The notes: generated by a model not told the origin, from the sequence alone. DNA of 64,000 bases from an uncultured bacterium (GCA_963749445.1 CAVVMJ010000004.1:16483-80482), one strand, 5' to 3'; counted from the stretch's first letter, positions 10,938 to 58,251 are shown. Made by a program: numbers and translations.

Positions 10938-12749
10938 ATGCCGAGTGAAACATCAAAACTTTACCCCGGTCATTTGCTGGCAACCGCACTTTCTGAGCTG
11001 AAAATGACCTCGCAACTTAGCGGCGAGCCTGAGATTTCAGTGCCGGATGCCAAGTTTGGCGATTACGCCACTAACGTAGCCTTGATTTTGGGCAAAAAGC
11101 TCAAATTGCCGCCGGTTGAGGTGGCCAATAAAATCGCGGACAGGCTAAAACAACTGGACACGGAGCGGGTATTTGCCGATATCAGCGTGGCCGGGGGGTT
11201 CATTAACCTTAATTTGTCGCGGGAATATTTGCTAAAAAACCTTTCGCGGATACTGGAGCAAAAGGACAACTTTGGCTCGCCCTGGAACAATGAAGACAAG
11301 ACCGTCATCGTGGAATATTTCCAGAATAACGTGGCCAAGCCCCCGCACGTCGGGCATTTGCGCAGCGCCGTGGTGGGCGACAGCCTGCTGCGGTTGTTCC
11401 GGTTTTTGGGATACCGGGCGGTATCGGATACCCATATCGGCGACTGGGGCACGCAGTTTGGCATTTTGATTTTGGCGTATAAGACTTTCGGCAAAAAATC
11501 CGTTGTGGAAAAAAATCCCATTGACGAGCTGAATAAGCTTTACGTGGAAATGTCGGCGAAAATAGAAGCGGATCCGGCTTTAAAGGAATCGGCAAAAGCT
11601 GAATTTAAAAAATTGGAAGACAGCGACGCGGAAAACCGCAAGCTTTGGCAATGGTTTGTTATGGAATCCGTGGCGGATTTTGAACGGTACCGGAAGCTGT
11701 TGGGGCTGCTGAGGTTTGACCATAACCTGGGCGAAAGTTTTTACGAAGACAAAATGCCGAGCATTTTATCGGAGCTGCAATCAAAGGGTTTAGTAACCAA
11801 AGGCGAGACTGGGGAATTATATGTTGATCTAGAAAAATATAAATTAGGACGATGCCTTTTGGCGAAGTCCGACGGCGCCACGACTTATCACCTTCGGGAT
11901 TTTGCCACTTATATTTACCGGAAGAAGGAATTTAATTTTTATAAAAATATTTATGTCGTAGACAACCGCCAGTCCCACCATTTTAGGCAGTTGTTCAAGG
12001 TTTTGGAATTGGCCGGGTACCCGGCGGGAAAAGACAGCTTCCACGTGGAGTTGGGATTTATGAGCCTGCCCGAAGGGCCGATTTCCACGCGCAAAGGAAA
12101 TATTATCAGCCTGCAAAATTTAGTTGATGAAGCGGAAAAGCGCGCTCTGGCCATAATTGAAGAAAAAAACCCCGGGCTTAAGAAAAAGAAGGCGGTGGCC
12201 GGCCAGGTCGCGCGCGCCGCCATAAAATATTTTGACCTTTCCCACAATCGCAAAACCGAATTCGTGTTCACTTGGGACAAAGCCTTGTCGTTTGAGGGGA
12301 ACACGGGGCCGTATTTGCAATATACGCACGCACGAATTTTTGGCATTTTAAGGAAGTCGTCTACCACCCCGTCCCGCCAAGGCGGGACACCCCTCCTGTC
12401 CCAGGAGGGGAATACTGCAGCTCCGCGGAGCTCTCCTCCTAAAATAGGAGGAGTACCCGCCGCAGGCGGGGGAGGTGGTATAAATCCGCACGAAATAGCT
12501 GTCCTCCGCAAACTCAACCAATTCCCCGAAGTCCTGGAACAGGTGGCCGTAGATTATATGCCGAATTTGTTATGCAATTATTTGTTTGAACTCGCACAGT
12601 CGTTTAATTCATTTTATCAGGAAATTCCGGTCTTGCAGGAAGAAGACGGCCAATTAAAATCATTCCGACTGCAACTGATTACCGCCACCGCGCAAGTCAT
12701 TAAAAATGGCCTGAATTTATTGGGTATAGAAGCCCCTGAAGAAATGTGA
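10938..12749 (+). CDS. argS: Arginine--tRNA ligase (ArgS), class I, carrying a ~130-bp in-frame palindromic insertion
   Basis: HIGH-type motif PPHVGHLRSAVVGD. Anticodon-binding C-terminus ...YLFELAQSFNSFY. The insert at 12361-12489 encodes TTPSRQGGTPLLSQEGNTAAPRSSPPKIGGVPAAGGGG and is built from nested GC-rich palindromes. Confidence 0.9.
   Translation: MPSETSKLYPGHLLATALSELKMTSQLSGEPEISVPDAKFGDYATNVALILGKKLKLPPVEVANKIADRLKQLDTERVFADISVAGGFINLNLSREYLLKNLSRILEQKDNFGSPWNNEDKTVIVEYFQNNVAKPPHVGHLRSAVVGDSLLRLFRFLGYRAVSDTHIGDWGTQFGILILAYKTFGKKSVVEKNPIDELNKLYVEMSAKIEADPALKESAKAEFKKLEDSDAENRKLWQWFVMESVADFERYRKLLGLLRFDHNLGESFYEDKMPSILSELQSKGLVTKGETGELYVDLEKYKLGRCLLAKSDGATTYHLRDFATYIYRKKEFNFYKNIYVVDNRQSHHFRQLFKVLELAGYPAGKDSFHVELGFMSLPEGPISTRKGNIISLQNLVDEAEKRALAIIEEKNPGLKKKKAVAGQVARAAIKYFDLSHNRKTEFVFTWDKALSFEGNTGPYLQYTHARIFGILRKSSTTPSRQGGTPLLSQEGNTAAPRSSPPKIGGVPAAGGGGGINPHEIAVLRKLNQFPEVLEQVAVDYMPNLLCNYLFELAQSFNSFYQEIPVLQEEDGQLKSFRLQLITATAQVIKNGLNLLGIEAPEEM
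12361..12489. repeat. Family-1 modular palindromic element (units A-B-C-D) inserted in frame in argS
   Basis: TACCACC-[GTCCCGCCAAGGCGGGAC]-[CCTCCTGTCCCAGGAGG]-...-[CTCCTCCTAAAATAGGAGGAG]-[CCCGCCGCAGGCGGG]-GGTGGTA. The same modules recur at 16165, 25381, 50906, 57617, 12841 and 39318. Confidence 0.8.
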
Positions 12750-12750
12750 A

Positions 12751-12900
12751 CCGCTGATTGGTCGCTGACCCATTCGGCAAAGCTCAGGGTCACCCCGAGC
12801 GAAGTCGAGGGGTGATAGGGACGCTGATCAATCGCTGAAGTGCGGAGCTTCCCCTCCTTGCTGAGGAGGGGTGGACGCCGTAGGCGGACGGGGTGGTTGG
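12751..12900. repeat. Intergenic composite repeat: family-2 element (CCCATTCGGCAAAGCTCAGGGTCACCCCGAGCGAAGTCGAGGGGTG) followed by a family-1 module
   Basis: The same family-2 then family-1 arrangement recurs at 39157-39460. The family-2 core also occurs at 4555, 22941, 37871 and 38471. Confidence 0.75.
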
Positions 12901-12940
12901 AGTGTAGTGTGCCGATTCATCGGCTTATTGATGAGAAAAT

Positions 12941-13373
12941 ATGAACGAAACGGACAAAAAATTTATTTACGATTTTATCCATCAGCAAAAGATAGCGGTT
13001 TTGGCCACGGTGAATAAATCCGTCCAGCCGGAAGCGGCGGTCATGGAATTCGGGGAAACCGAAAGTTTGGAAATAATCTTTAATACTTTAGTCGAGCCGC
13101 ATTATCGCAAATACAAAAATCTGCAGAAAAATCAGGCCGTAGCATTGGTTATCGGCTGGGAAGATAATATTACCGTCCAATATGAAGGTCTGTGCCATGG
13201 AGCTTAAAGGCGAGGAACGCGACAAGTACAAAAAGATTTTTTTCCAAAAGAATTTCGAAGCGGCAAAGTGGGACAAAAACCCGGAAATCAGGTATTTTTT
13301 AATCACCCCCAAATGGGTGCGCTACTCCGACTACGACGGCAAGCCTTACAAGATTATTGAATTAAAGTTTTAA
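12941..13373 (+). CDS. Pyridoxamine-5'-phosphate-oxidase-like FMN-binding split-barrel protein (general stress protein 26 family), frameshifted near 13190
   Basis: KIAVLATVNKSVQPEAAVMEF...ALVIGWED plus a C-terminal KWVRYSDYDG. These are typical of the PNPOx-like fold. The two ORFs overlap at 13182-13207. Confidence 0.55.
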
Positions 13374-13398
13374 AGTCTGGGTAACAAATCAAGGTTAT

Positions 13399-14565: not shown

Positions 14566-14581
14566 ATATTAACTTTTTATT

Positions 14582-17500
14582 ATGCCAGAGGAAAAATCAC
14601 AACAATCACCACAATCTAATGCTCCCGATTTCAACAAACTGGAGCAGGAGATTTTAAAGTTTTGGGAAGAAAATAACATCTTCCAAAAATCCCTGGACCA
14701 GAGTTTGGGCAAGCCGCCTTACATTTTTTACGACGGCCCGCCGTTTGCAACCGGCTTGCCGCATTACGGCAGTATTTTGCCGTCTGTCATCAAAGACGCG
14801 ATCCCGCGCTACCAAACCATGAAGGGCCGTTTTGTGCGTAGGCGCTGGGGCTGGGATTGCCACGGCTTGCCCATTGAAAATATCGTTGAGCAAAATTTAA
14901 AAATCTCCGGCAAAAAACAAATTGAAGAAATCGGGCGTGGAGAATTTTAACAAAGTTTGCCGCGAAAACGTGCTGGGTTTTGCCGCCGAGTGGGGTAAAA
15001 TGGTCAAACGGATCGGCCGCTGGGTGGAGTTTGAAAATTCTTATAAGACCATGGACACGTCTTATATGGAATCCGTGTGGTGGGCCTTAAAGCAGATTTG
15101 GGACAAGAAATTGATTTATGAGGACAGGAAAATTTTGCTTTACTGCTCGCGTTGCGAAACGCCGATATCCAATTTTGAAGTGGCCATGGACAACTGCTAC
15201 CGCGACGTTACCGAAGAATCGGTTTACGCCAAGTTCAAGTTGCTGCCGCGGCAGAGGATCATTAACGACCTGACCAATGACAAAACTTATATGCTGGCCT
15301 GGACCACCACGCCGTGGACTTTGCCGGGCAACACTTCGCTGAACGTCGGCCCGGATATTAAGTATGTGTTGGTGGAGCAGAAACGGCGAGCGTTACATTT
15401 TAGCCAAAGACCGGCTGGATGTTTTGGACGGGGAGTACGAATTAGTTTCAGAATTTCCGGCCCGGTCCTTGGACGGTTTAGAGTATGAACCGCTGTATCC
15501 GGCCATTATTCCCTAAACGCACATAACGGCTTAAAGGTGCCGGATTTAGTTGGCGACCCGGCCCGCGCCCACGCGTGTATCTGGCGGATTTTGTGACCAC
15601 GAAAGACGGCACCGGCATTGTGCACAACGCGGCCATGTACGGCGAGGAAGATTACGAGCTGGCCAAGGAAAAAAATTTGCCGCGGCTGGATATGCTGGAC
15701 CATAAAGGCCAGTATTTGGAACGGACGCGTGCCCAAGCATTTGCAAGGCGTATTCTTTAAGGATGCCGAGCCGGTTGTACTTAAAGATTTAAAGACGCGC
15801 AACCTAGTTTACAAAATTTTAAATTACACCCACAGCTACCCGCACTGCTACCGCTGCGGCACGCCGCTGTTTTATAACGCCCTGCCCGCGTGGTTCATCA
15901 ACATCCAAAAAATCAAACCCCGCTTGCGGCAGCTCAACGCGCAACAAATGCAGTGGTACCCCGAATATTTAAAGGCCGGCCGGTTTGACAAAAGCGTGGA
16001 GAGTGCGCCGGACTGGAATATTTCCCGCAACCGCTATTGGGCCACGGCTTTGCCGTTTTGGAAGTGCCAGAATAAGGAATGCAAACACGTTGCCTGTATT
16101 GGATCAATATCAGAATTGATTGAACGGTCAATAAATTTTAAAGAAGTATACCCAGATTTTACTCCAACCACCCCGTCGGCTGACGCCGCCGCCCCTCCTC
16201 AGCAAGGAGGGCAAGCTTCCGACTACGCCAAGGCTTCGTCGGACGAGCCGCGGCTTCCCGCCGTAGCTTTAGCAAGGCGGGAGCCTCTCCTCCAAATCTT
16301 CGGAGGAGTACCCCGCGATAGCGGGGGAGGTGTATGAATCACTCGATCTTCATCGGCCTTACATTGATCAGGTAATCCTAAAATGCCCGCAAGTGCGGGG
16401 GGCAAATGATGCGCGTGCCCGAAGTCGTGGACTGCTGGGTGGAAAGCGGCTCTATGCCGTTCGCGGAACTGCACTATCCGTTTGAAAACACAGATTTATT
16501 TCAGCAGCGCTTCCCCGCGGATTTCGTGTCCGAGTACATCGGTCAGGTCAGGGCCTGGTATTATGTGATGTTAGTGATGTCCGCGGTTTTGTTCGACAAA
16601 GCACCGTTTAAAAATTTAATGACTACGGGTAACATTTTGGCCGAAGACGGCAGCAAGATGTCCAAGTCCAAGCAAAATTATCCCGACCCGAATTTATTGA
16701 TTGAAAGGTACGGCGCCGACGCGCTTGCGGTTTTATCTTTTGACCTGCCCGGTGGTGGGCGGCGACGACATCAACTTTTCCGAAAAGAGCGTGCAGGAAA
16801 TCAGCCGCAAGGTTAACATGTTAGTTTATAACGTGTGGTCGTTTTATCGGATGTACCAACCGCGGAATGACGCGGAATTTAACGCGGAAAAACGCGGAGA
16901 CGAATCCCAACATATTCTAGACAAATGGATTGTTTCCGGAACTTGCGCATTGGCAGGGAGAGGTCACAAAATATCTGGACGCTTACGATACCGTGCGGGC
17001 CGGCAAAATAATTACTGGTTTTATAAATGACTTGTCAACCTGGTACGTGCGCCGCAGCCGCGAGCGTATTAAGGAAAATTCCGAGGATTCCAAAAAAGCC
17101 CTGCAAACATTGGGCTTTGTATTGGTTGAATTGTCCAAAATGCTTGCGCCGTTTATGCCGTTTTTGGCGGATTTTATCTATAAAGATTTAACCGGGCAGG
17201 AATCGGTGCATTTATCCGAATGGCCAAAGCCGCGTTTGGAGCTGCACGATGAAAAGCTGGAAAGCGTGATGTCAACGGCGCGCCAGATCGTGGAGCAGGG
17301 TTTGTCCCTGCGCAGGGAAAACAGCCTCAAAGTTAGGCAGCCCTTGGCTGAACTGGAATATTTTATTAAGGAGAAAAACCATTTGCTCAGCGCGGAGCTT
17401 GAACAGGTTTTGGCCGATGAACTGAACGTCAAACTGGTGAGCGGCCGGTCGGATTTTGTGCCTAAAGCGGGCTGGGCGTACAGGGAAACGCCGACTTTTA

Positions 17501-17794
17501 AGCTTGCGCTGAATTTGGAATTATCCGAGGAGCTCAAAAAGGAAGGCGCTGGCTCGTGAATTGGAGCGCCTGGTGCAGGATTTGCGCAAAAAAAGCGGCC
17601 TCAAAGTCGGGGAACTGGTTGATGTTTATTACAACACGACTGATGGCGGGGTGGAGGAAGCGCTGCTGAATCTGTTTGACCGCAAAAAAACTTTTGTCAA
17701 CCAAGTGCAAAAAAGTTTGGAAGTGGAAGTGGATTTTGAAATTCAGGGACAGGTAGAAGGCAAGACGGTGTGGGTGGGGATGAATAAAATTTAG
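14582..17794 (+). CDS. ileS: Isoleucine--tRNA ligase (IleS), full length but split into at least 7 ORFs by +/-1 indels, with a family-1 palindromic element inserted (16165-16332)
   Basis: [10 protein letters not shown] (HIGH-like), [21 protein letters not shown], the CP1 editing region, the zinc motif CP(K)CGG and the KMSKS motif. The breaks I traced lie in homopolymer runs, for example GGG near 14928 and CCC near 15506. Confidence 0.85.
16165..16332. repeat. Family-1 modular palindromic element inside ileS (A-B-E-C-D arrangement)
   Basis: CCAACCACCCCGTC...GCCCCTCCTCAGCAAGGAGGGC...CTCTCCTCCAAATCTTCGGAGGAGTACCCCGCGATAGCGGGGGAGGTG. Encodes [15 protein letters not shown].... Confidence 0.75.
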
Positions 17795-22702: not shown

Positions 22703-24958
22703 ATGGATTTATCATCTTTAAACGACAGGCAACAACAGGCAGTCACGGCCCCGCTCGGGCCGGTTTTAGTGCTGGCCGGGCCGGGGAGCGGGAAGACAAA
22801 GACTTTGACCCACCGCATTGCGTATATAATAGAGCAAAAGCTGGTGCGGTCGGAAAATATTCTGGCTTTGACTTTTACCAACAAAGCGGCTAAGGAGATG
22901 CGCGAAAGGGTTAGCGTGTTGCTTGCCCGATATAAATCGGCTGCCGACCCATTCGGCAAGCTCAGGGTCGCCCCGAGTGAGTCGAGGGGCGAAAGTTTAA
23001 CCATGGGTACATTCCATTCCGTTTGCGCCAGATTGCTGCGCAAGGAAATTCCGGCTTTGGGTTATGGTTCAGATTTTGTGATTTTTGACACCGAAGACCA
23101 AAGAAAAGTTTTGCGGGAAATTTGTGATGAGTTGCGTTTGGACAAAAAATTGCCCCCGTCTTTGTTTGCCGCTTTGATCTCCCGCGCTAAAAATCTTTTG
23201 CAAACGCCGGCGGAATTGGATTTGGGCCTGGATAATCCTTTTGCGGAAAAACTTCAGGAAGTTTACGCGCGCTACCAGGATTCTTTGTATAAACAAAACG
23301 CTCTGGATTTTGACGACCTGCTTATGTTAATGGTTAAAATTTTGCAGGGTAGCGACAAAGTCCTGCGCAAATACCAAAAACAGTTCAGTTATATTCTGGT
23401 GGATGAGTATCAGGACACCAACCTTGCCCAATACGCGCTTCTTCAGCTGCTTGGCGAGTATCACCAGCTTTTTGTGGTTGGCGATGATGCGCAGAGCATT
23501 TACGGCTTCCGTGGTTCGGACATCCGCAACATTTTAAACTTTGAAAAGGATTTTCCCGAATGCCAAATCATCAAGCTTGAGCAAAACTATCGTTCCTCGC
23601 AAAACATTTTGGCGGCCGCGCAAAAAGTCATTGAGCTAAACAGCGAGCAAAAACCCAAAACTTTGTGGACGAAAAATTCCTCCGGCGAGAAAGTTATTCT
23701 ATACGGCGCGGAGGACGAACGCGCGGAAGCCGAATTTGTGGCAAAACAAATAATCAGGTTATCTGCCGTAGAGGCACGCCGTGGCGTGCCTTCATCCGAT
23801 GAATTAGAATATGAAACCGATGATAGCCAAGCCGAACCAAAACCTTTTTCTATCCTTGATCGATTTATCAAAGCCAGAAAAATGCAGGGGCAGTATTCAA
23901 CATTGGGCCAAAGCCTTTTGCCGCAACTGCCGTCCAAACATGACAGCCTAAAGGAATTTTGCGTGCTTTACCGCACGCACGCCCAGAGCCGCGCTTTGGA
24001 AGAAGTTTTCATTCAAGCGGCGATCCCGTACCAGATTGTCGGCGGCTTAAAATTTTACGAGCGCAAGGAGATTAAGGACGTGTTGGCTTATTTGCGGCTG
24101 CTCCTAAATTTCCGCGATTTTGTGTCTTTAAAACGCGTCATTAACGAGCCGCCGCGGGGAATTGGGGATAAATCGTACTTAACGATTAGAGATTTCATAT
24201 TGGATTTTAATCAGAGGAATGTTAACGGCGCGGCGTCGGAAAATCGGAAAATCGGAAAATCGGATTCCGACATCCGACTTTCCGACTTCCGAATCGCTTT
24301 GGCAGACGTCCAGCTACCCCCCAAACAATGGCAATCTGCCCAGGATTTTTTTGCCACGCTGGAAGATTTATCCGAACTGCCGAAAACCGCGACTTTGCCC
24401 CAACTGATGAAGGCCATAACCAGGCGTTCGGCTTACGAAAAGTTTTTGCGCGACGGTTCGGAGCAGGGCGAGAGCCGCTGGGAAAACGTGGAAGAGCTGT
24501 GGACCGTGGCCGCCAAGTTTGGCAACTTGCCCTGGCGCGAAGGCGCGCAGGCGCTTTTGGAGGAAGTGGCTTTGCTTTCGGAAATTGATTCCAAGGACGA
24601 ACATCAGGACAGCGTAACCTTAATGACGCTTCACAGCGCCAAGGGTTTGGAATTTGACAACGTGTTTTTCGTGGGGCTGGAAGAGGGGATTTTGCCGCAC
24701 TCGCGCAGTTTGCTGGATCCAAAAGAATTGGCCGAAGAGGTGCGCTTGGCTTACGTCGGGCTCACGCGCGCGCGCAAGCGCTTGTTTTTGGTGTACGCGC
24801 AACATCGCAGGATTTTTGGCAATGTGCAGGCCGGCCGCCCTTCCCGCATTTTGCGCGTTTTGCCCAAAGAAAATTTGCAGCTTTTGGGGGCAGCCAAAGA
24901 AATTTATTTAAATGATGCCGTTGACGGCGGGATTACGGTGGAAGAGATGGAGTATTAA
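22703..24958 (+). CDS. uvrD: UvrD/PcrA-type ATP-dependent DNA helicase (SF1) carrying three separate in-frame palindromic insertions
   Basis: Walker A LAGPGSGKTKTLT, motif II LVDEYQDTN, C-terminal VGLTRARKRLFL. Inserts: family-2 at 22941-22990 (ADPFGKLRVAPSESRG), the GTAG-type hairpin GTAGAGGCACGCCGTGGCGTGCCTTC at 23775-23800, and the CGGAAAATCGG/CCGACTTCCGA palindrome at 24230-24300. Confidence 0.85.
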   Translation: MDLSSLNDRQQQAVTAPLGPVLVLAGPGSGKTKTLTHRIAYIIEQKLVRSENILALTFTNKAAKEMRERVSVLLARYKSAADPFGKLRVAPSESRGESLTMGTFHSVCARLLRKEIPALGYGSDFVIFDTEDQRKVLREICDELRLDKKLPPSLFAALISRAKNLLQTPAELDLGLDNPFAEKLQEVYARYQDSLYKQNALDFDDLLMLMVKILQGSDKVLRKYQKQFSYILVDEYQDTNLAQYALLQLLGEYHQLFVVGDDAQSIYGFRGSDIRNILNFEKDFPECQIIKLEQNYRSSQNILAAAQKVIELNSEQKPKTLWTKNSSGEKVILYGAEDERAEAEFVAKQIIRLSAVEARRGVPSSDELEYETDDSQAEPKPFSILDRFIKARKMQGQYSTLGQSLLPQLPSKHDSLKEFCVLYRTHAQSRALEEVFIQAAIPYQIVGGLKFYERKEIKDVLAYLRLLLNFRDFVSLKRVINEPPRGIGDKSYLTIRDFILDFNQRNVNGAASENRKIGKSDSDIRLSDFRIALADVQLPPKQWQSAQDFFATLEDLSELPKTATLPQLMKAITRRSAYEKFLRDGSEQGESRWENVEELWTVAAKFGNLPWREGAQALLEEVALLSEIDSKDEHQDSVTLMTLHSAKGLEFDNVFFVGLEEGILPHSRSLLDPKELAEEVRLAYVGLTRARKRLFLVYAQHRRIFGNVQAGRPSRILRVLPKENLQLLGAAKEIYLNDAVDGGITVEEMEY

Positions 24959-24960: not shown

Positions 24961-25044
24961 AAGCATATAGCAGTTAGCATTTAGCAGATAGGGGTTTTGT
25001 ATTCTCGCCTAAATGCTATATGCTAACTACTAAATGCTAAACCA
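24961..25044. repeat. Family-3 intergenic element (TTAGCATTTAGC-rich imperfect hairpin) between uvrD and rsmA
   Basis: AGCATATAGCAGTTAGCATTTAGCAG...CGCCTAAATGCTATATGCTAACTACTAAATGCTAA. Related copies at 40268-40350 and 47407-47480 occupy the same stop-to-start position. Confidence 0.7.
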
Positions 25045-25989
25045 ATGAATATTGATAAGCTCAAAAATTTACTCCAGCGCTATGGTTTAAAACCCAATTT
25101 TACTTATGGGCAGAATTTTTTGGTTGACGATGATGTGTTGGACGAAATTGTTGAGGCGGCGGAAATCACACCGGCTGACAATATTCTGGAAATCGGTCCG
25201 GGCATTGGGAATTTAACGCGGCTGTTATGCGAACGCGCGGGATTTGTGCTATCCGTGGAAAAAGACCCAAAATTTTTGCCGATATTAAAAGCCGTAAAGA
25301 AAGATCATAAAAATTTCCGTTTTGAAATTGCGGACGCTTTAAAATTTGATTTTTTGAAAGAACTAAATCAGCTGCAGTCATCTCCTCCTAATATAGGAGG
25401 AGTATCCCGCGAAGCGGGGAGAGGTGGTATTTCGGGGGCAGCTACCACCCCGTCCCGACAAGTCGGGACACCCCTCCTGTCCCAGGAGGGGAATACTGTG
25501 TCCTATAAGGTCGCCGCCAACATCCCGTACTACATTACCGGAAAAATTTTGCGGATGTTACTGGCCGCGAAAATTAAACCGACCAGCATTACCATTTTGA
25601 CGCAAAAAGAAGTGGCACAGACCTTGGCGGCTAAGGCGGGGGATTTATCCTTGCTCGCGATTTCCGTTCAGCTTTACGGCGAGCCGCGGTTGGTTAAAAT
25701 CGTGCCGGCAAAAAGTTTTTATCCGCAGCCCAAAGTGGATAGCGCGATTGTGCGGATTGATATCCATCCGAAACCAAAATATAATTTTGCCGATGAAAAA
25801 CAATTCTTCCGTGTTTTGCGCGCCTGCTTTGCCGGCAAAAGAAAACAGCTTCACAACACGTTGAAGAATAATTTGGGTTTGGAAAAAGGACGGGTTGATA
25901 AAATTTTATCAGCCGCCAAAATAAATCCCGCGGCCCGGCCGCAGGAGCTGAGTATTGCGCAGTGGATTGATTTGAGTAAAAAAATTTAA
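25045..25989 (+). CDS. rsmA: 16S rRNA (adenine1518/1519-N6)-dimethyltransferase RsmA/KsgA with an in-frame family-1 palindromic insertion
   Basis: GQNFLVDDDVLDEIV...ILEIGPGIGNLT (SAM-binding). The insert at 25381-25497 encodes SSPPNIGGVSREAGRGGISGAATTPSRQVGTPLLSQEGNT between conserved blocks. Confidence 0.85.
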   Translation: MNIDKLKNLLQRYGLKPNFTYGQNFLVDDDVLDEIVEAAEITPADNILEIGPGIGNLTRLLCERAGFVLSVEKDPKFLPILKAVKKDHKNFRFEIADALKFDFLKELNQLQSSPPNIGGVSREAGRGGISGAATTPSRQVGTPLLSQEGNTVSYKVAANIPYYITGKILRMLLAAKIKPTSITILTQKEVAQTLAAKAGDLSLLAISVQLYGEPRLVKIVPAKSFYPQPKVDSAIVRIDIHPKPKYNFADEKQFFRVLRACFAGKRKQLHNTLKNNLGLEKGRVDKILSAAKINPAARPQELSIAQWIDLSKKI

Positions 25990-40267: not shown

Positions 40268-40350
40268 GCATTTAGCATTTAGCATTTAGCGATTAGCCAG
40301 ACATGTTTGGCTAAATGCTAACTGCTAACTGCTAAATGCTAACTGCCAGA
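40268..40350. repeat. Family-3 intergenic element (TTAGCATTTAGC-type)
   Basis: GCATTTAGCATTTAGCATTTAGCGATTAGCCAGACATGTTTGGCTAAATGCTAACTGCTAACTGCTAAATGCTAACTGCC. Confidence 0.7.
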
Positions 40351-43300
40351 ACTATGAAACTGGAAATGCAAAATAAAAATAAAGCCGCAGTCAAATCCAC
40401 GCAAAGTTTTTTGAGAATCAGCGAAATCAAGAACGACGTGGTGGTTTTGGACGACGGCACGCTGCGCGCGATTTTGTCCGTGTCCAGCACCAATTTTGAT
40501 TTAAAAAGCCAGGAAGAACAGAACGCGATTATTTATAATTTCCAACGGTTCGTGAATTCCCTGGAATTTTCCATCCAGATTCTGATGCAAAGCCGCAAAA
40601 TGGAAATCGGCAGCTATTTGGAAAAGCTTAAAAATATCGCGGAAAAGCAAACCAATGAGCTTTTGCGGGTGCAGACGTTGGAATACATAGAGTTCATTAA
40701 CCGGCTGATTGAAAACGCCAGCATTATGAATAAGAATTTTTACGTGATTGTGCCGCTGGATGAAAGCATTTTCCCACCGGCCGGCGGATTCTTTAGCAAA
40801 ATATTCGGCGGCGGCAAGGCCAAGGCGGTAAAACAGCGCATTGAAAATTTTGAGAAGCTTAAGGAAAAATTGGAAAACCGAGTGACGGCGGCTTCGGCCA
40901 ACCTGTCCAGCATCGGCCTGCAGTCCGTGCAGCTGAAAACCGAAGGCCTAATCCAGCTGTATTACAATTCTTACAATTTTGAATCCGCACCCGTGGTGGA
41001 TACCGGCAAGCTGAAGGATATGAATGTTGTTCAATAAGGTGATACCAATATACTAATGCATACGAATGATACTAATAATACGAATCCTGTATCTGATGGC
41101 TTAATTTATAAGGAATTATCGTATTTGATTAACGGAGTTTTGTATTCCACCCACAATGAATTGGGGCCATATGCAAGGGAAAAACAGTATGTTGATGTGG
41201 CGGAGAGAATATTTAAGGAAAAAAGTATTAAATGCATTAAAGGACAACGAATCGGTGATTCAGGCAATATTTTGGATTTGCTGGTGGACGATAAAGTTCT
41301 CTTAGAATTTAAGGCCAAACGGATTTTGACGAAAGAAGATTACTATCAAACCCAAAGATACTTGCAGGAGACAGGTTTAAAATTAGCGATTCTAGTTAAT
41401 TGTAGGGACAAGTATATTAAGCCCAAGCGCATAGTTAGGATTGATAATTGGAAAAATCCGCATTAGTATTATTCGTATTATTCGTATTGATTAGTATATT
41501 AGTATCTTATGAGTTTATTTAAAATCAAAACCGAAAAAGAGCTGGAAGAAAAAAAGTCCATGCTCCAGGAAGCCGAAGCCGAGCACGATTTAAGCAAAAA
41601 ATTGGGCGACGTGGAAAAAATCTACCGCGAAGGCCTGACTACGCTCAAAGGACCTAATCGCTCCGGCCAGCCTGAAATTCCAGAATTCTTATTTTGAACT
41701 CAACGGCAAATTCGCCCGCAGTTTTTTTGTGCTGGCTTATCCGCGGTTTTTATCCAGCAACTGGCTGTCATTCATCATCCAGGCCGAAGGCGCCCTGGAT
41801 TTGTCCATGTTCATTTATCCGATTGATTCGGAGACCATTTTAAAAAAACTTAAATCCAAAGTCGGGGAACTTGGCAGCCAGATGTCCATTAACCAGGAAA
41901 AGGGCATGTGCGCGACCCGATGCTGGAAACGGCCTACAAAGACGTGGAGGGCTTGCGCGACCAGCTGATGCAGGGCACGGAACGGTATTTCCGCTTTGCC
42001 CTTTATTTTACCATTTACGCCGAAGACTTAAAGGAACTGGACAAAGATTCCAGCTACGCTTGGAGAGCGCGTTTGGGGCCAAGTTGATTGTGACCAAGCG
42101 CGCGATAATGCAAACCCAGGACGGCTTTAATTCCACGCTGCCTTTGGGCAAAGACCAGCTGGCTGTGGCAACAACATGAACACCAGCCCGCTGTCCACCT
42201 GTTTTCCGTTTGTGTCCTCGGATTTAACCAGCAATGACGGGATTTTGTACGGCATCAACCGGCATAACAACAGCCTGATTCTGTTTGACAGGTTCGCTTT
42301 GGAAAACGCCAATTCCGTGGTTTTCGCCAAATCCGGCGCGGGCAAATCTTACGCGGTCAAATTGGAAGTTTTGCGCTCATTTGATGATCGGCACGGAAGT
42401 GATTATCGTGGACCCGGAAAACGAATACAAACATTTGGCCGACGCCGTGGGCGGGACTTATTTGAGCGTGAGCTTGAATTCCGACTCGCGCGATCAATCC
42501 GTTTGATTTGCCGCGGCCATTGAAGGCGAGGATAATGCCGACGTACTGCGCTCGGCCGTGGTCAATTTGTTGGGCCTGTTTATCTTTGATGCTCGGCAAA
42601 CTTAACCCGACGGAAGAAGCCTTAATGGACAAGGCCATTTGGCAGACTTACGCCAAAAAGGATATTACGGCCCAGTCGGATTTTACGACCGTGGAGTATC
42701 CGACCATGAACGATTTGGTGGAAATTTTGCACGGCATGGTGGGCGCGGAAAGTCTGGCACAGCGGCTCGAGCAAATTCACGGAAGGCACTTTTGCCGGAC
42801 TGTTTAACCAGCCCACCAACGTGGTGCTCAACAACCAGCTGGTGGTGTTTTCCATCCGCGATTTGGAAGATGAACTGCGGCCCATAGCCATGTACATGAT
42901 TTTAAATTACATTTGGAACGATTGTGCGCAGTGAGCTGAAAAAGCGCATTTTGGTGGTGGACGAAGCCTGGATTATGATGCAGCACGAGGACAGCGCGCG
43001 CTTTTTGTTCGGCATTGCCAAGCGGGCGCGCAAATATTATCTCGGCCTGACCACGATAACCCAGGACGTGGCGGATTTTATGGCGTCGCCATACGGCAAG
43101 CCGATTGTCACCAATTCTTCCATCCAATTGTTGTTAAAACAATCGCCGGCGGCCATTAACATTATCGCGGAAACTTTCTTTTTGACCGAAGGCGAAAAAT
43201 ATCTGCTTTTGGAAAGCGAAGTCGGGGAAGGCATTTTCTTTGCGGGGTTAAAACACGCGGCCATAAAAATTTACGCTTCCTACGTGGAAGACCAGATTAT

Positions 43301-47406: not shown

Positions 47407-47480
47407 AAGCGTTTAGCAGATAGCATTTAGCGTTTAGCCAGACAGTTTTGCGTGGCTAAGTGCTAATTGCTATATGCTAA
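47407..47480. repeat. Family-3 intergenic element
   Basis: AGCGTTTAGCAGATAGCATTTAGCGTTTAGCCAGACAGTTTTGCGTGGCTAAGTGCTAATTGCTATATGCTAACAGC. Confidence 0.7.
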
Positions 47481-47490
47481 CAGCTTTTTT

Positions 47491-48813: not shown

Positions 48814-48884
48814 ATAGTGTCAAGGGTCACCCTTGACACTATTTGAGGAAATGGTTTAGATTGCCTTGAAATAAGGGTTTTTTG

Positions 48885-48983
48885 TTGATGGGCATCTTTT
48901 TGCCAATACAACCCTCGACCATTGTCTATCGTTGGCCGATAATTACCAGTCAGCGATTGTGGAGCCACGAAGGTGCCCATCAA
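48885..48983. mobile_element. MITE-like element copy 6 (inverted orientation) at the edge of the GC-rich DksA/IS1595 island
   Basis: TTGTTGATGGGCATCTTTTTGCC...CCGATAATTACCAGTCAGCGATTGTGGAGCCACGAAGGTGCCCATCAA. Confidence 0.7.
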
Positions 48984-50634: not shown

Positions 50635-52839
50635 CTATTCAAAATGTACGCTTTTGCCGGCGATTTTTTCTTTCAAAAGCGGATAGTTGTCTAAATTCAA
50701 ATCATCTTTCAAAATCGCCAAAGCTTCCTGGCGGGCGGGTTCGATCAAAGATGTATAGGAGGGGTTAAAGTATTTAAAATTCCAGCCGGATTGCTGGGAG
50801 CCGTAGACTTCGCCAAAGCCGCGGGTTTTTAGGTCCAGTTCGGCGAGTTCAAAGCCGTCCTGGGTTTTAGTGAAAGATTCAAGGCGTGCGATGGTATCAT
50901 TTTTAACATCTGCTCCAACCACCTCCCCCCGCTTCGCGGGGTACTCCTCCTTAGAAAAGAAGGAGAGGCTCCGCGGATTGTTCGAGGTTAACTGCGGAGC
51001 TTCCCCTCCTTGCTGAGGAGGGGTGTCCCGACGAAGTCGGGACGGGGTGGTTGGACTCATAAATAAAAAACAATAGCTTTGATGTTCGGCGCGGCCGACG
51101 CGGCCGCGGAACTGGTGGAGCTGGGCCAGGCCAAATCTTTCCGCGCCTTCAATGACCATTACGCTGGCGTTGGGGATGTCCACGCCGACTTCCACCACGG
51201 ACGTGGAAACCAAAATTTGGATTTTGTTTTCCAAAAAGTCTTTCATTACGCTCTCTTTTTCCGCGCCCTTGAGCCGGCCGTGCATCAGGCCGATGTTAAA
51301 CTTGGGAAAAACTTTTTTTAAATTTTTCAGTTCGGTCTTGGCGGCTTTGACGCCAAGTTTATCACTTTCTTCAATCAGCGGCGTAATTACAAACACCTGA
51401 CGGCCGGTGTTTATCTGGTTTGCGATAAATTCATAAGCCTGCCCGCGGTTTTTGTGTTCAACCAGCTTGGTCACAATCGCTTTGCGCCCCAGGGGCTTCA
51501 TCTTTATTTGGGAAATATCAAGTTCCCCGTAAAAAGCCAGCTGTAGGGTGCGGGGGATGGGAGTTGCGGATAATGATAGCAAATGCGGTACTTTTCCACT
51601 AGTTTTCATCAACTCCGCCCGCTGCTCCACTCCAAACCGGTGTTGCTCGTCAATAATTACCAGAGCCAAGTTTTTGAATTTTACTTTTTTTTGCAGCAAA
51701 GCGTGCGTGCCTATATATAGACCGGGGCGGCCTTCCGCAATTTGTCTGGTTAAATTAGATTTTTGTATTTTTCCCAGTTGGTCCAAAGAGAAAGAATTGG
51801 TCAAAAGCGCAGTTGAACATAACTTCTGGCCAGAAGTTATGTTCAACAAGTATTTTTTTGTTGTTTCAAAATGCTGGCGGGCTAAAATTTCCGTGGGCGC
51901 CAAAAAGACGGCTTGATAATCGTCGGAGATTGCCTGTAAGGCTGCTATCAGCGCCACCAAAGTTTTGCCGCTGCCTACGTCGCCTTCCAAAAGCCGGTTC
52001 ATGGGCCGCGGTTTTTCCAAATCCTGCAGAATTTCCCAGGCGGCTTTTTTTTGCGCCGGTGTGAGTTCAAAAGGCAAAGTTAAGACAAAGTTTTTGATTA
52101 GCGTCTGGTCAAATTTTATCGGGTAAGCCTGTTTTACGGCCAGCTCCAGTTTGTGTTTTTGCGCCAGCAATTGATTGTAAAAAATTTCTTCAAATGCCAG
52201 GCGGGCTTTGGCCTCCGCCAGCTTTTCGGCGTCATCGGGAAAGTGCGAAAACTTGACGGTGTCGGCAATGGGCAAAAGCCGTTGGCGCCGCAAAATGTCG
52301 GCCGGTAAATTGTCGGTTAAACTATCGGCGAGGTTTAAAACTGCGCCTATCGCGCGCCGGAAAGTTTTGGGGTAAACTTTTTCCGGCAAGCGGGGATAGA
52401 GGGGAACCAAGCGGGAAGTGTGTAGGGGGAAATCGGATACTTTTTCGTAGGTTGGGTTAGTGAGTTGGAGGCTGAAATTGTAGATTTCCGGCGCGCCTGC
52501 CAGGAAAACCTCGTCGCCTTTTTGCAGCTGGTCGGCTACGTACCCTTGGTTAAACCACACGACTTTTAAAGAGCCGGTGTCATCGGAAACCACGGCTTCG
52601 GCCAAAGACATCCGGCTGCGGAACGAAAAACGCCTGCTGATTTGTTTAACGGTAACTTTAATGCTGGCATTTTCGCCCGGGGTTAAATCCTTGATTTTTT
52701 TGATTTGGGAAAAATCCAAATACCTTCGCGGGAAATACAGCAGCAAATCCCGAGCCGCGGTGAGGCCGAGCTTTTTTAAAGCCGCAACCTGCGGCTTGGT
52801 AAAGATTTTTATTTGCTCAATGGCGTCGTCAAGTTGCAT
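50635..52839 (-). CDS. recG: ATP-dependent DNA helicase RecG with an in-frame family-1 palindromic insertion
   Basis: N-terminal wedge domain, helicase motifs GDVGSGKTLVA, DEQHRFGV and QLHQFRGRVGR. The insert at 50906-51054 encodes TTPSRLRRDTPPQQGGEAPQLTSNNPRSLSFFSKEEYPAKRGEVVG. Confidence 0.9.
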   Translation of the reverse strand: MQLDDAIEQIKIFTKPQVAALKKLGLTAARDLLLYFPRRYLDFSQIKKIKDLTPGENASIKVTVKQISRRFSFRSRMSLAEAVVSDDTGSLKVVWFNQGYVADQLQKGDEVFLAGAPEIYNFSLQLTNPTYEKVSDFPLHTSRLVPLYPRLPEKVYPKTFRRAIGAVLNLADSLTDNLPADILRRQRLLPIADTVKFSHFPDDAEKLAEAKARLAFEEIFYNQLLAQKHKLELAVKQAYPIKFDQTLIKNFVLTLPFELTPAQKKAAWEILQDLEKPRPMNRLLEGDVGSGKTLVALIAALQAISDDYQAVFLAPTEILARQHFETTKKYLLNITSGQKLCSTALLTNSFSLDQLGKIQKSNLTRQIAEGRPGLYIGTHALLQKKVKFKNLALVIIDEQHRFGVEQRAELMKTSGKVPHLLSLSATPIPRTLQLAFYGELDISQIKMKPLGRKAIVTKLVEHKNRGQAYEFIANQINTGRQVFVITPLIEESDKLGVKAAKTELKNLKKVFPKFNIGLMHGRLKGAEKESVMKDFLENKIQILVSTSVVEVGVDIPNASVMVIEGAERFGLAQLHQFRGRVGRAEHQSYCFLFMSPTTPSRLRRDTPPQQGGEAPQLTSNNPRSLSFFSKEEYPAKRGEVVGADVKNDTIARLESFTKTQDGFELAELDLKTRGFGEVYGSQQSGWNFKYFNPSYTSLIEPARQEALAILKDDLNLDNYPLLKEKIAGKSVHFE

Positions 52840-52842
52840 AGT

Positions 52843-53418: not shown

Positions 53419-53422
53419 AGTT

Positions 53423-53803: not shown

Positions 53804-53894
53804 CGAGTCGAGTGGCGGAAGCGAGAGGATTCGAACCTCTGAGGGACTCATCATCCCTAGCAGTTTTCAAGACTGCCCCGATAGACCGCTCCGG
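53804..53894 (-). tRNA. tRNA-Ser (anticodon TGA) with a long variable arm
   Basis: Reverse complement GGAAGCGTGCCGGAGCGGTCTATCGGGGCAGTCTTGAAAACTGCTAGGGATGATGAGTCCCTCAGAGGTTCGAATCCTCTCGCTTCCGCCA. Anticodon loop CTTGAAA, a type-II variable arm and an encoded CCA. Confidence 0.8.
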
Positions 53895-54204
53895 CACGCT
53901 TCCTGATCTACCTCGATCGTAGAAGCCGATAAATCGGCGCACTACACACGGTGGTTAACTATATTATACCATTTTATATCTTAGTAAGCAACAAGTAGTA
54001 CTATCCGCCTTCGCCAAGGCTTCCGCCTCCGCTAAAGCTACGGCGGACAAGTCGGCGGATTGCCCGCTATGTTTTATATTGATATTGTGGGCAACAAAAA
54101 CAACCCACCTCTAGAATGGGTTGTTTTTATATTTTTCGGTTTTAAAGCTTCCGTGGACTGCCATCCTGAATTGAGGAAATATGCTTATTTCCTCTATCAA
54201 GATA

Positions 54205-56657: not shown

Positions 56658-56699
56658 CACCAGCAAAATATATGATTGTAAAAAAGCAAAGAAATTGGT

Positions 56700-56755: not shown

Positions 56756-56933
56756 AATATATTAAAATTGCCTTATTATTCTAGCAAAAAGTTCAATCTC
56801 TGGCAATTGTAAGGCACCAGACGGAGGAGGCGCCGTTGCGCTTTAAGACTTGGGCGGCTTCAAGGAGGGTGGCGCCGGTAAATCAAAATCAAAATGGGGC
56901 ATGCAAAATTAAAAAATCCCCGCTTGGGAATTT

Positions 56934-57206
56934 TTAAATTCGTTTATAAATTTGGCTGTAGACTACCGAGCGATGCTGGATTATCAGGATTTTAACGTTA
57001 TTTTGCTCAATTTTAAAAATGACGCGGTAGTCGCCGACGCGAAGCTTGCGGTAGCCTTTGAGCGAACGGCGCAGGGGCTTGCCGTAAAAATCGGGATACG
57101 CGGACAACCGCCGCTCTATCGCCGAGCGGATTTTTTGTTTCCATTCTTCCGAAAGTTTGGGAATGTCATCCCTGACGACCAAAGGATGGTAGCTTAGCTT
57201 GAACAT
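56934..57206 (-). CDS. RelE/ParE-family type II toxin
   Basis: MFKLSYHPLVVRDDIPKL...LKGYRKLRVGDYRVIFKIEQNNVKILIIQHR is the canonical RelE/ParE signature. Overlaps the antitoxin stop by ~1 codon. Confidence 0.75.
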   Translation of the reverse strand: MFKLSYHPLVVRDDIPKLSEEWKQKIRSAIERRLSAYPDFYGKPLRRSLKGYRKLRVGDYRVIFKIEQNNVKILIIQHRSVVYSQIYKRI

Positions 57207-57207
57207 A

Positions 57208-57426
57208 TTACCAAGCTTTAGAATGGGGGACAAAGCGCGCTTTTTTACTGTCGCGCGAGCCGGCAATGGCGTCCCAAACCCGGTCTTCCTCCATTTCCAA
57301 AGCCGTTTCCAGCAAATGGGCGGCTTTGGTGGCTTGGGGAACGTCGTCGCGCAGCGCCAGCCTGTTAAGCCCTTGCCTAACGTGGCCGGGGAGGCTAATG
57401 TTGATTCTTGCTTTTGTGGTGGGCAT
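57208..57426 (-). CDS. Ribbon-helix-helix (CopG/RelB-like) antitoxin
   Basis: 72 aa; N-terminal beta-strand (ARINISLPGHVRQGLNRLA) plus two helices. Encoded immediately upstream of the toxin. Confidence 0.6.
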   Translation of the reverse strand: MPTTKARINISLPGHVRQGLNRLALRDDVPQATKAAHLLETALEMEEDRVWDAIAGSRDSKKARFVPHSKAW

Positions 57427-57474
57427 AGCTTTAGTGTATCAAAAGTGTATCAGTTATGTCAAGTCCTAAAATGG

Positions 57475-58251
57475 CTAATCTCGGGCAACAGTTAGGCACC
57501 AGACGGAGGAGGCGCCGTTGCGCTTGAGGACTTGGGCGGCTTCAAGGAGGGTGGCGCCGGTGGTGGTGACATCGTCGATTAATATCAGATTTTTATTTTT
57601 TATCGTCAAGGCATCTCCAACCACCCCGTCCGCCTGCGGCGGCCACCCCTCCTTAAAAAGGAGGGGAGTTGGGGACAGCGCAAAGGCGTCGCGGACGTTT
57701 GTTAGGCGCTGTTCGCGCTTTAGGTCTTTTTGGGTTTTGGTGGATTTGATTCTTATCAGCGCGTCCATAACCGGCAAATTTAATTCTTTGCCCATTGCCC
57801 GGCATAAAATTTCGGATTGGTTAAACCCGCGCCAGCGCAGGCGTCTGGGGTGCAAAGGCAGGGGGACTAGCAGGTAGTTGGTAGTAAGTAGGGGGTAGCC
57901 AACCTTAATTTGATCGGCTAAAAATTTTCCCAGTTCCTCGTAAATGCCCGGCAAAAAACTGTATTTGCCTTTGATTAAAATGTTGGCGACGGATTCGTCG
58001 TGGTAATTTAAAATGGATATTAACCTGTCGGCGCAATGGGGCGTCAGGCATCCCGGATGGGTAAAGCCGCCAAGGGACTGTTTTTGGCAGACAATGCAGT
58101 GCTGGAATTCCAATCTTGATAATTCCGATAAACATCTAGGACACACAAAGTTCCTCTCCGCCCCGCACCGCAGGCATTGGATAGGGAACAGGGTATCCAA
58201 TACAAAAGTTCTGGCGTCAATAAGGAAAGGTTTTATTAAAGTTCGATACAT
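57475..58251 (-). CDS. comFC: ComF/GntX-family protein (N-terminal zinc-finger plus phosphoribosyltransferase domain) with an in-frame family-1 palindromic insertion
   Basis: CLRCGAERNFVCPRCL...CIVCQKQSL...HPGCL zinc motifs. PRTase LILIDDVTTTGATLLEAAQVLKRNGA. The insert at 57617-57674 encodes EGWPPQADGVVGD. Confidence 0.7.
   Translation of the reverse strand: MYRTLIKPFLIDARTFVLDTLFPIQCLRCGAERNFVCPRCLSELSRLEFQHCIVCQKQSLGGFTHPGCLTPHCADRLISILNYHDESVANILIKGKYSFLPGIYEELGKFLADQIKVGYPLLTTNYLLVPLPLHPRRLRWRGFNQSEILCRAMGKELNLPVMDALIRIKSTKTQKDLKREQRLTNVRDAFALSPTPLLFKEGWPPQADGVVGDALTIKNKNLILIDDVTTTGATLLEAAQVLKRNGASSVWCLTVARD

Follow-up and report, generated by a model that had tools for sequence, protein, structure and literature searches.

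We analysed a 64,000-nucleotide (nt) stretch of DNA from an uncultured bacterium (GCA_963749445.1, CAVVMJ010000004.1:16483-80482), referred to below as the window. The host is an ultra-small bacterium of the Patescibacteria with a small, gene-dense genome. The window contained 12 full copies of a repeat unit of about 55 nt, and 9 of the 12 were intragenic. We consider it probable that these units form a family of DNA palindromes, similar to repetitive extragenic palindromes (REPs) and bacterial interspersed mosaic elements (BIMEs), that behaves like the Rickettsia palindromic elements (RPEs) and lies in frame in permissive protein loops. An earlier reading of this DNA, made without database searches (the sequence-only reading), had proposed an in-frame palindromic invasion of the RPE type. 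The follow-up agreed with that proposal: the inserts lay between conserved blocks, most orthologues were empty at these sites and the modelled fold of one host protein, KsgA, was intact.

Each unit consisted of an ACCACC head, a GC-rich hairpin 1 with free sequence and a conserved stem, a sequence-conserved hairpin 2 (CCTCC..GGAGG) and a short tail; the conserved unpaired head was ACCACCYC. An nhmmer profile and a covariance model, each used alone, detected the 12 units and no hidden copies. The pattern ACCACCYC-N10-22-CYCCTCC-N4-10-GGAGGRG matched the window eight times and none of 100 dinucleotide-preserving shuffles. The G+C content of the units was 52-70%, compared with 42-55% in the window. 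Two subtypes were distinguished. Type I starts with ACCACCCCGTCC, followed by hairpin 1 and CCCCTCC..GGAGGGG, and has the consensus (Y)YA-ACCACC-CCGTCC, GC hairpin 1, AC-CCCCTCC(T)-loop-(A)GGAGGGG, A(A)GCTCCGCGG. Type II starts with ACCACCTCCCCC, followed by hairpin 1 and CTCCTCC..GGAGGAG, and has the consensus ACCACC-TCCCCC, hairpin 1, TA-CTCCTCC(T)-loop-(A)GGAGGAG, then AGCTCCGCGG. The sequence-only reading had described four modules, A to D, in seven intervals. All seven intervals carried them, but the modules resolved into two subtypes of one unit, A plus B being type I and inverted D plus C being type II. Unit tails in the window were AATACT, AGCTCCGCGG and AAGCTT, and no T-run followed the intragenic copies. 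The tetranucleotide CGTC stood beside hairpin 1 in all seven type I units of the window, whereas CGCC or CGGC took this place in most units elsewhere; GTAG was absent.

In all aligned units, hairpin 2 paired a CCTCC resembling the anti-Shine-Dalgarno sequence with a GGAGG resembling the Shine-Dalgarno sequence, and between the subtypes the head motif co-varied with the 5' strand of that hairpin. The type II head CACCTCC is the same as the anti-Shine-Dalgarno core of 16S rRNA. One Acidobacteriota variant of hairpin 1, together with CACCCCTCCTT, also resembled helix 45 and the anti-Shine-Dalgarno tail of 16S rRNA. We regard this likeness as probably coincidental, as hairpin 1 varies freely elsewhere.

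Ten of the 12 units formed five inverted pairs of one type I and one type II unit. These heterodimers were mostly 117-150 nt long and were imperfect palindromes. Three were joined tail to tail (argS, 12358-12484; ileS, 16162-16339; recG, 50913-51056), with CCGCGG or CTGCAG at the centre and the ACCACC heads outermost, and two head to head (ksgA, 25376-25497; intergenic, 39323-39446). Two units were single (intergenic, 12845-12902; comF, 57615-57672). Terminal inverted repeats CTCCAACCACC...GGTGGTTGGAG bounded the recG copy and the argS copies of two relatives described below (L124 and L125), and (A/T)TACCACC...GGTGGTAT bounded the argS copies of the window and of a third relative (L123). Folded as RNA, the heterodimers reached -62 to -88 kcal/mol (z -4.4 to -8.7) and gave closed multi-branch structures whose ends were joined by the terminal inverted repeats.

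Pfam searches identified the host genes as encoding ArgS, IleS, RsmA/KsgA, RecG and a ComF-like zinc-ribbon phosphoribosyltransferase. The sequence-only reading had called these genes essential; this fits argS and ileS but not ksgA, recG and comF, which are dispensable in Escherichia coli. The argS gene (10899-12749, plus strand; Pfam tRNA-synt_1d, DALR_1 and Arg_tRNA_synt_N) is an intact open reading frame (ORF) of 616 amino acids (aa). Its element fills a loop of the DALR domain between HARIFGILRK and EIAVLRKL. The left half of this tail-to-tail heterodimer is a type I unit on the plus strand (12358-12416; covariance model 57.2 bits, nhmmer E 1.5e-9; read as STTPSRQGGTPLLSQEGNT) and the right half a type II unit on the minus strand (12427-12484; 55.8 bits; antisense reading SSPPKIGGVPAAGGGGGI). 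The centre is AGCTCCGCGGAGCT, and the whole fold reached -80.2 kcal/mol (z -8.7). A single intergenic type I unit (12845-12902, minus strand; 62.6 bits) lies 96 nt 3' of the argS stop codon.

The rsmA/ksgA gene (25045-25989, plus strand; Pfam RrnaAD) is intact, encodes 314 aa and carries a 39-aa insert between DALKFDF and YKVAANIPYY. The left half of this head-to-head heterodimer is a type II unit on the minus strand (25376-25433; 45.0 bits; read as SSPPNIGGVSREAGRGGI), and a type I unit follows on the plus strand (25439-25497; 55.1 bits; read as TTPSRQVGTPLLSQEGNT). The type I units of ksgA and argS were 96% identical over 57 nt, and their differences included one compensatory change of C:G to A:T in hairpin 1. 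The recG gene (50635-52839, minus strand; identified by Pfam) is likewise intact; its product has 734 aa, of which about 47 are an insert that separates motif VI (..SYCFLF) from the C-terminal domain. The gene contains a type II unit on the plus strand (50913-50970; 53.0 bits), which the minus-strand gene reads in antisense as ..SLSFFSKEEYPAKRGEVVG, and a type I unit on the minus strand (50997-51056; 60.3 bits; read as PTTPSRLRRDTPPQQGGEAPQ). The comF-like gene (57475-58251, minus strand; 258 aa, intact; Pfam DZR_2, a double zinc ribbon, and Pribosyltran) holds a single type I unit on the plus strand (57615-57672), which gave the best score of the search (68.5 bits) and is read in antisense as SPTPLLFKEGWPPQADGVVG. 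A sequence search of the PDB gave no match for the ComF-like protein. The intergenic head-to-head pair comprises a type II unit on the minus strand (39323-39381; 50.4 bits) as its left half and a type I variant on the plus strand (39391-39446; 51.6 bits), in which the head is ACCGCC and hairpin 2 is CCCCGCC..GGCGGGG.

In argS, ksgA, recG and comF the ORF passed through the element without a stop codon. In the heterodimers of argS, ksgA and recG only one of the three sense frames was free of stops, and this was always the frame of the host gene (three of three intact heterodimers). That the sole stop-free frame is the host frame is the pattern expected from a selection filter acting on translated inserts. 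The insert length was a multiple of three in every intact host gene measured. The DNA of the ArgS variable loop between conserved blocks was 144 nt in the window and 138, 144 and 153 nt in relatives, all multiples of three. Predicted junction peptides between element and host include ILRKSSTTPSR and GNTVSYKVAANIPYY. The insert peptides were rich in Pro, Gly, Ser and Thr, with the recurring strings TTPS.., PLL..EG and SPP..GGV. They matched no Pfam or NCBIfam family, and no protein in an index of 5.8 billion proteins shared three 5-residue words with a 41-aa insert peptide. The sequence-only reading held that every coding copy is read in the same TTPS frame. This applied to argS, ileS, ksgA and recG but not to comF, which reads SPTPLLFKEGWPPQADGVVG from the opposite strand; the preference is mostly explained by there being only one stop-free frame, the one used by the gene. 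Its statement that the host ORF continues beyond the element was correct for argS, ksgA, recG and comF and incorrect for ileS.

The ileS gene (14582-17791, plus strand) was broken into at least seven frame segments, as judged by tblastn and MAFFT against the intact IleS of a relative (L121). About nine frame changes over 3.2 kb separated the two, mostly single-base insertions beside short homopolymers. FKEVYPDF and LDLHRPYID flank the loop that holds the element. The latter comprises a type I unit (16162-16218, plus strand; 55.7 bits), extra hairpin modules nested in the centre (16219-16280, plus strand; TCCGAC..GTCGGA and CCCGCC..GGCGGG, the 'CCGCCTTCGCTAAAGCTTCGGCGGA' repeat family) and a degenerate type II unit (16281-16339, minus strand; 33.1 bits) with the terminus GGTGTA rather than GGTGGTA. 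The ORF at 15618-16337 ends at a TGA (16335-16337) in the last bases of the element, which adds 160 nt relative to the intact orthologue and hence not a multiple of three. Two other genes of the window were also split, alr (2423-3825) into two pieces and clpB/C (59158-61740) into three. The splitting of all three genes reflects either residual indel errors of the assembly or gene decay.

Alignment of orthologues placed the extra segments of ArgS, KsgA and RecG between conserved blocks, as the sequence-only reading had expected, and most orthologues of the three proteins did not contain these inserts. In ArgS the element lies in a variable loop between HARIxGILRK and E..VLRKL, where most of 120 orthologues, all Patescibacteria-like, had 21-30 residues. 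The basal, insert-free form of KsgA has 276-280 aa and reads ..DFQ.FFKEQGYKSYKVVANIPYY, whereas the KsgA of the window had 39 extra residues before YKVAANIPYY. Nearly all of the best 150 RecG homologues matched in two stretches or more, of which the main one ended near residue 595. In the alignment the window had about 47 extra residues, and the nearest homologue (67% identity) did not possess the insert. In the ComF-like protein the Pribosyltran match spanned residues 185-256, so that 72 residues corresponded to just 46 profile positions, as would fit some 20-26 extra residues. Orthologues that shared the insert peptide also shared the palindromic DNA, the reverse of the outcome that the sequence-only reading had named as refuting it.

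We modelled KsgA with AlphaFold2 (AF2). The mean predicted local distance difference test score (pLDDT) was 87; insert residues 118-147 scored below 50 and had no secondary structure, and the remainder was mostly above 90. A Foldseek comparison with solved KsgA structures gave target-normalised TM-scores of 0.86-0.89, indicating that the fold is kept. In the model, therefore, the insert appears as a disordered loop on an intact fold.

The corresponding ArgS and KsgA loops in other Patescibacteria (alignments P0002-P0240) held unrelated repeat-like peptides, including FQFSILNFQ, RHPERSEGS..ILRSDALPQNDA, PPWHP, RFKVQGSSLEPSTLHLEP, LTTDH, SVPIYRP..INGRAT, NAEKRGSGKQ and ADINADLR. It looks as though genome-specific repeats generally colonise these loops in Patescibacteria.

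The argS heterodimer, with type I on the plus and type II on the minus strand, was present at the same loop in three syntenic relatives: GCA_013387205.1, JGI 3300037086 and Logan SRR28624412 (together L123, L124 and L125). All eight units found in these relatives were intragenic. Further, L124 carried the same heterodimer at the same ileS loop within an intact ileS of 1047 aa. The closest relative found, L121 (ArgS 76% identical), had no unit in 21.7 kb and an intact ileS. In a neighbour-joining tree the element-bearing ArgS sequences were scattered, which suggests that the argS loop was hit repeatedly or that its content was lost or replaced many times.

We asked at which level the element is constrained. 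Between the window and its relatives, identity at third codon positions of argS was 0.42-0.48, compared with 0.69-0.87 in the embedded units; the mean among paralogous units within the window was 0.76. The embedded units were thus as conserved as first and second codon positions, with synonymous sites near saturation. The reading frame across hairpin 2 varied among argS orthologues (TPLLSQEG versus HPSLAGGE) because the length of hairpin 1 varied between them. Since the frame differs over the same DNA, the peptide is not the conserved level. Covariation was measured in 133 units from 49 sources aligned to the covariance model, a model-fitted set that leans towards structure, and was compared with controls in which the pairing partners were slid; despite this bias the contrast was clear. 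All six pairs of hairpin 1 changed on both sides, paired cells amounted to 81.6% compared with 57-68% in the controls, and the covariation score was 0.273 compared with 0.04-0.09. G-U pairs were rare (7, compared with 132 other mismatches), and folding as single-stranded DNA was equal for the two strands (z -6.3 and -7.4). The near absence of G-U and the equal folding of both strands indicate a strand-symmetric DNA palindrome rather than a structure of RNA only. Nucleotide conservation, frame drift and stem covariation almost without G-U together point to constraint on the element as a DNA-level palindrome.

The unit was not confined to this genome and its relatives. A pattern scan over one genome per species of GTDB gave at least 120 loci. 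About 109 among the matches listed shared the full architecture, including features outside the pattern, and the loci among these matches came from Acidobacteriota, Bacteroidota, Burkholderiales, Gammaproteobacteria, Chlamydiota, Verrucomicrobiota, Ignavibacteriota-type metagenome-assembled genomes and several Patescibacteria. Isolate genomes with the unit were those of Hymenobacter, Pontibacter, Pedobacter, Maribacter, Robertkochia and Bacteroides rodentium JCM 16496. In other phyla, both subtypes were present, as were inverted partners. We rejected chance as an explanation of the matches across phyla, as conservation extended beyond the pattern: an A preceded ACCACC and a G followed it, hairpin 2 was preceded by CA or TA and its stem extended by T/A, hairpin 1 was paired and inverted partners were present. 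The sequence-only reading had recommended a consensus search of the assembly and related genomes; copies were found in relatives and also in many other phyla.

Units elsewhere favoured the 3' ends of genes: the upstream gene was on the same strand in 52 cases versus 30, and the downstream gene on the opposite strand in 50 versus 27. Only 18-30% of the units in other phyla lay within long ORFs, compared with 47-64% of random positions. In many units outside Patescibacteria and in phages, hairpin 2 was followed by AGTTT(T), as in an intrinsic terminator. Some copies in other phyla were nevertheless intragenic, within an Acidobacteriota aldehyde dehydrogenase (L057, 3385-3488), where the heterodimer lay exactly at a break in the Pfam match, and within a 1026-aa Bacteroidia ORF with a DUF559 domain (L101, 1497-2036). 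In IMG/VR, 84 stretches carried the pattern; in one phage contig (L196, IMGVR_UViG_3300043480_000018) units at 495-554, 2427-2535 and 3713-3767 lay within ORFs for the terminase large subunit, the portal and a MuF-like protein. Consensus units gave no blastn match at E <= 0.01 to INPHARED phages or PLSDB plasmids, to which the low-complexity filter may have contributed.

Because the unit is common to many phyla and phage contigs, the intragenic habit in the window is one outcome of a far wider element family. A broader proposal is that one module of two hairpins, conserved in sequence (ACCACCCCG, hairpin, CACCCCTCCT..AGGAGGGG; also in a CTCCTCC variant), constitutes a single family in at least 10 bacterial phyla and their phages, spread by broadly available machinery and repeatedly colonising coding sequences in frame (tRNA synthetases, rRNA methyltransferase, helicase, dehydrogenase, phage terminase and portal). 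We offer this tentatively, as less likely than not. If true, the module would be a general generator of disordered protein loops and no lineage curiosity of the Rickettsia kind.

The explanation that we favour for the window is as follows. Units would be copied to new sites by an activity that works in trans, or else through recombination or template switching at the hairpins. Selection would then remove all insertions except those in permissive surface loops with an open frame, and the survivors would be transcribed and translated as disordered loops, rich in Pro, Gly, Ser and Thr, that the enzymes tolerate. The predominance of heterodimers would follow from the instability of long perfect palindromes in bacterial DNA; the same argument has been put forward for REP dimers (PMC3733652).

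Several points weigh against this explanation. A tblastn search with IS200 TnpA found no match in the window or in about 205 loci, although this test is weak. The argS and ileS junctions showed no target-site duplication or direct repeat; the loops have diverged, and the filled and empty pairs are too distant for clean junctions. The scattered distribution among ArgS sequences fits either repeated insertion at one permissive loop or a single old insertion with many losses or replacements. Translation of the inserts is inferred from the frame and stop statistics, and the frameshifted genes (ileS, alr and clpB/C) indicate that local sequence errors are possible. Finally, old copies are more highly conserved in nucleotide sequence than is usual for DNA that is purely selfish and decaying, which may reflect a function in cis or ongoing gene conversion.

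This conservation leads to the alternative that the units are functional cis-elements kept by host selection, which overlaps with the explanation above but gives another reason for the conservation of the copies. The units could bind a nucleoid protein or topoisomerase, act as RNA hairpins by which transcripts and ribosomes are stabilised or paused, or sequester the Shine-Dalgarno-like GGAGG. The argS-embedded units, conserved like first and second codon positions despite nearly saturated synonymous sites, agree with such a function, as do the covariation of hairpin 1, the retention of CCTCC/GGAGG in hairpin 2 across phyla and the very stable RNA folds of the heterodimers (-62 to -88 kcal/mol). 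The terminator-like position of units at gene 3' ends outside Patescibacteria, where hairpin 2 is often followed by AGTTTT, also agrees. However, other lineages have unrelated repeats or nothing in these loops, which argues that no host function is tied to the site. Further, both orientations relative to the host gene occur (comF being antisense), the near absence of G-U speaks against a purely RNA-level structure, the intragenic copies of the window have no T-run and the closest relative has no unit in 21.7 kb. We consider host-selected cis function an unlikely main reason for the copies in the window.

Selection at the protein level is far less likely. Here the inserts would be kept as flexible Pro/Gly-rich linker or interaction modules, and the DNA palindromy would be a by-product. 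The recurrence of peptides (TTPS.., PLL..EG, SPP..GGV) and their compatibility with folded hosts are as this predicts. However, the frame over the same DNA differs among orthologues and copies (TPLLSQEG, TPPQQGG, HPSLAGGE), comF reads the opposite strand, identical units are intergenic, the stems covary, and the peptides have no Pfam or NCBIfam match and are structureless in the AF2 model.

We give slightly less credence still to intervening sequences, intron- or intein-like, that are removed from the RNA or the protein. The very stable, closed multi-branch folds with ends paired by terminal inverted repeats would suit an intron, but splicing would require neither an open frame nor a length divisible by three, and both were found (three of three heterodimers; four genomes). 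Rfam gave no intron or ribozyme match, and 40-50 aa without conserved blocks is far too small for an intein. Lastly, despite the other quality problems of the window (about nine frame changes in ileS; split alr and clpB/C), the chance that the inserts are artefacts of assembly or binning, that is, chimeric joins at repeats in a metagenome-assembled genome, is negligible, since three independent assemblies from different pipelines (NCBI, JGI and Logan) have the heterodimer at one and the same codon position, related inserts recur in numerous independent sequences of KsgA and ArgS, isolate genomes (Hymenobacter, Pontibacter, Pedobacter, Bacteroides rodentium JCM 16496) contain the unit and the flanking reading frames are preserved.

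The window also contained other repeats. A second family (..CCCATTCGGCAAAGCTCAGGGTCACCCCGAGCGAAGTCGAGGGGTGA..) occurred at 4560-4620, 12751-12839, 22950-22990, 37864-37924, 38466-38526 and 39157-39245. Three of its copies lay in ORFs, one in 22703-24958 (peptide DPFGKLRVAPSESRGE) and two in 37394-39154, so that in-frame repeats are not confined to the main family. A third, hairpin family (TCCGCCTTCGCTAAAGCTTCGGCGGA; peptide ..FAKASADKS..) was found at 5202-5235, 16218-16251, 39466-39500 and 54022-54055. As one of these copies is nested in the ileS heterodimer, the heterodimer centre itself accumulates further modules; the ArgS orthologue P0005 showed the same nesting pattern. A family of about 100 nt (TTGATGGGCATCTTCGTGG...; 76-83% identical, both orientations) was intergenic at 1332-1439, 9623-9730, 10304-10405 and 48882-48983, with partial copies near 5110, 18654, 18730 and 46064. 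A 94-nt direct repeat, 89% identical, at 56786-56879 and 57468-57561, the second copy of which covers the 3' end of the comF-like gene, may be the remnant of a duplicated gene end. AT-rich intergenic hairpins lay directly 3' of genes (24962-25040, 40255-40352, 47408-47487, 41041-41085/41462-41506 and 61856-61938) and were built of short tandem words, namely AGCATTT/AGCGTTT 'TAGC' repeats and ATTAGTAT repeats. They may be the real terminators of this genome.

At the gathering threshold, Rfam detected nothing in the whole window beyond a transfer-messenger RNA (tmRNA) and tRNAs. The tmRNA (7340-7737, minus strand; 113 bits) was not reported by ARAGORN, and 53813-53903 (minus strand) matched tRNA-Sec in Rfam (50.3 bits) and was called tRNA-Ser(UGA) by ARAGORN. 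Permissive Rfam scans added only sub-threshold matches to whalefall-1, considered below, and to serC-leader, together with chance matches to microRNAs and exonuclease-resistant RNA (xrRNA).

In-frame colonisation by palindromic repeats is usually taught as a peculiarity of Rickettsia. A 2024 review treats RPEs as exceptional and only speculates on the same elsewhere (PMC10969869). RPE-type behaviour is now seen in Patescibacteria, in hosts that include tRNA synthetases and enzymes of ribosome biogenesis and repair. The filling of orthologous loops by other repeat families points to a general route for gaining and exchanging surface loops. Because REP-like elements are normally lineage-specific, the retention of sequence across phyla is unusual, and it raises the testable question of a common factor that recognises or copies the unit. 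In practice, such insertions make proteins longer and give rise to spurious 'hypothetical' ORFs and to peptides of low complexity, and for Patescibacteria they can lead annotation, the trimming of alignments and phylogenomics astray.

The sequence-only reading had regarded such invasion as rarely documented outside Rickettsia and as undescribed for this type of genome. [quoted passage not shown] On the latter, searches of the literature, whether by topic or with literal strings of the sequence, found no description of the present unit or of such repeats in Patescibacteria; the unit itself, being present in many phyla, is not special to this genome type.

The small RNA whalefall-1, annotated in Rfam from one metagenome (RF01762), is likewise about 56 nt long with two stem-loops, a CUCUCC/GGAGAG stem and then a GUCC...GGAC stem with a CUUG loop, and a G-rich tail. 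It aligned end to end with the minus strand of two type I units (12359-12413 and 25446-25491) at 20.8 and 19.2 bits, compared with a gathering score of 37, so that these are not members by the Rfam criterion; eight other unit-carrying loci gave no match. Whalefall-1 may be a local variant of the present repeat family. SPRITE elements of Streptococcus pneumoniae resemble many of the non-Patescibacteria and phage copies, which look like mobile intrinsic terminators (hairpin and T-run), but the window copies have no T-run. MITEs, of which ERIC/RU elements have intragenic copies fused to ORFs (Delihas, 2007, PMC2759123; reviewed in PMC10969869), are similarly short, non-autonomous repeats with terminal inverted repeats and in-frame fusion to host ORFs. 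In contrast to MITEs, the present element had no target-site duplication at argS or ileS and no parent insertion sequence in any locus, and its size and modular hairpin build differ.

The likeness to REPs, BIMEs and REPINs lies in short GC-rich hairpin units arranged in head-to-head and tail-to-tail dimers, with heterodimers of two subtypes favoured like the Y and Z REPs of BIMEs. Outside the genome of the window, the units are also sited like REPs at 3' ends between convergent or co-directional genes. As with REPs, copies are occasionally found within genes, some of them for replication and repair; reports of intragenic REPs exist for several species (PMC3733652). REPs form GTAG- and CGTC-tagged superfamilies (Di Nocera et al., 2013, PMC3733652), and the CGTC REPs have no associated transposase. 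ORFs flanked by units in three loci (L094, L095 and L104) contained no Pfam transposase. However, the present unit has two hairpins and the 8-nt head ACCACCYC, whereas a REP has one 8-9-bp stem and a tetranucleotide tag; GTAG is absent, and CGTC, though carried by the window's type I units, is inconsistent elsewhere. REP families are usually specific to a species or genus and mainly extragenic, downstream of genes, whereas the present unit keeps its sequence across phyla and was intragenic in 9 of 12 copies in the window. Further, there is hardly any G-T pairing, which in REPs is taken to signal RNA function.

RPE-1 to RPE-10 (Ogata et al., 2000, 2002; summarised in PMC10969869 and PMC3733652) are, like the present element, palindromic repeats of about 100-150 bp found between genes and, in a bacterium with a small genome, in frame within housekeeping genes that are unrelated to one another. 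The peptide segments that both add lie at fold-compatible sites, and no transposase is known for either. The window thus showed the features of RPEs, a multi-copy palindrome of 100-150 bp with fold-compatible in-frame copies between conserved blocks, the ileS copy being the exception. The likeness is one of behaviour; RPEs were compared by published description. The hosts are Patescibacteria rather than Alphaproteobacteria, the present element is a dimer of two double-hairpin units of about 55 nt that are also found singly, and its unit is common to many phyla and phage contigs, whereas RPEs have been described from Rickettsia. RPE-4 and RPE-6 have been placed among the CGTC REPs, in families whose stems are single and 8-9 bp long (PMC3733652), and the unit does not fit the description of CGTC-4 and CGTC-1, the families of RPE-4 and RPE-6, respectively (a single 8-9-bp stem, A/T at stem positions 1-2 and a CCA tail). 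The element is RPE/REP-like and lies outside every described family with which it was compared, being RPE-like in function and structurally closest to REPs and BIMEs.

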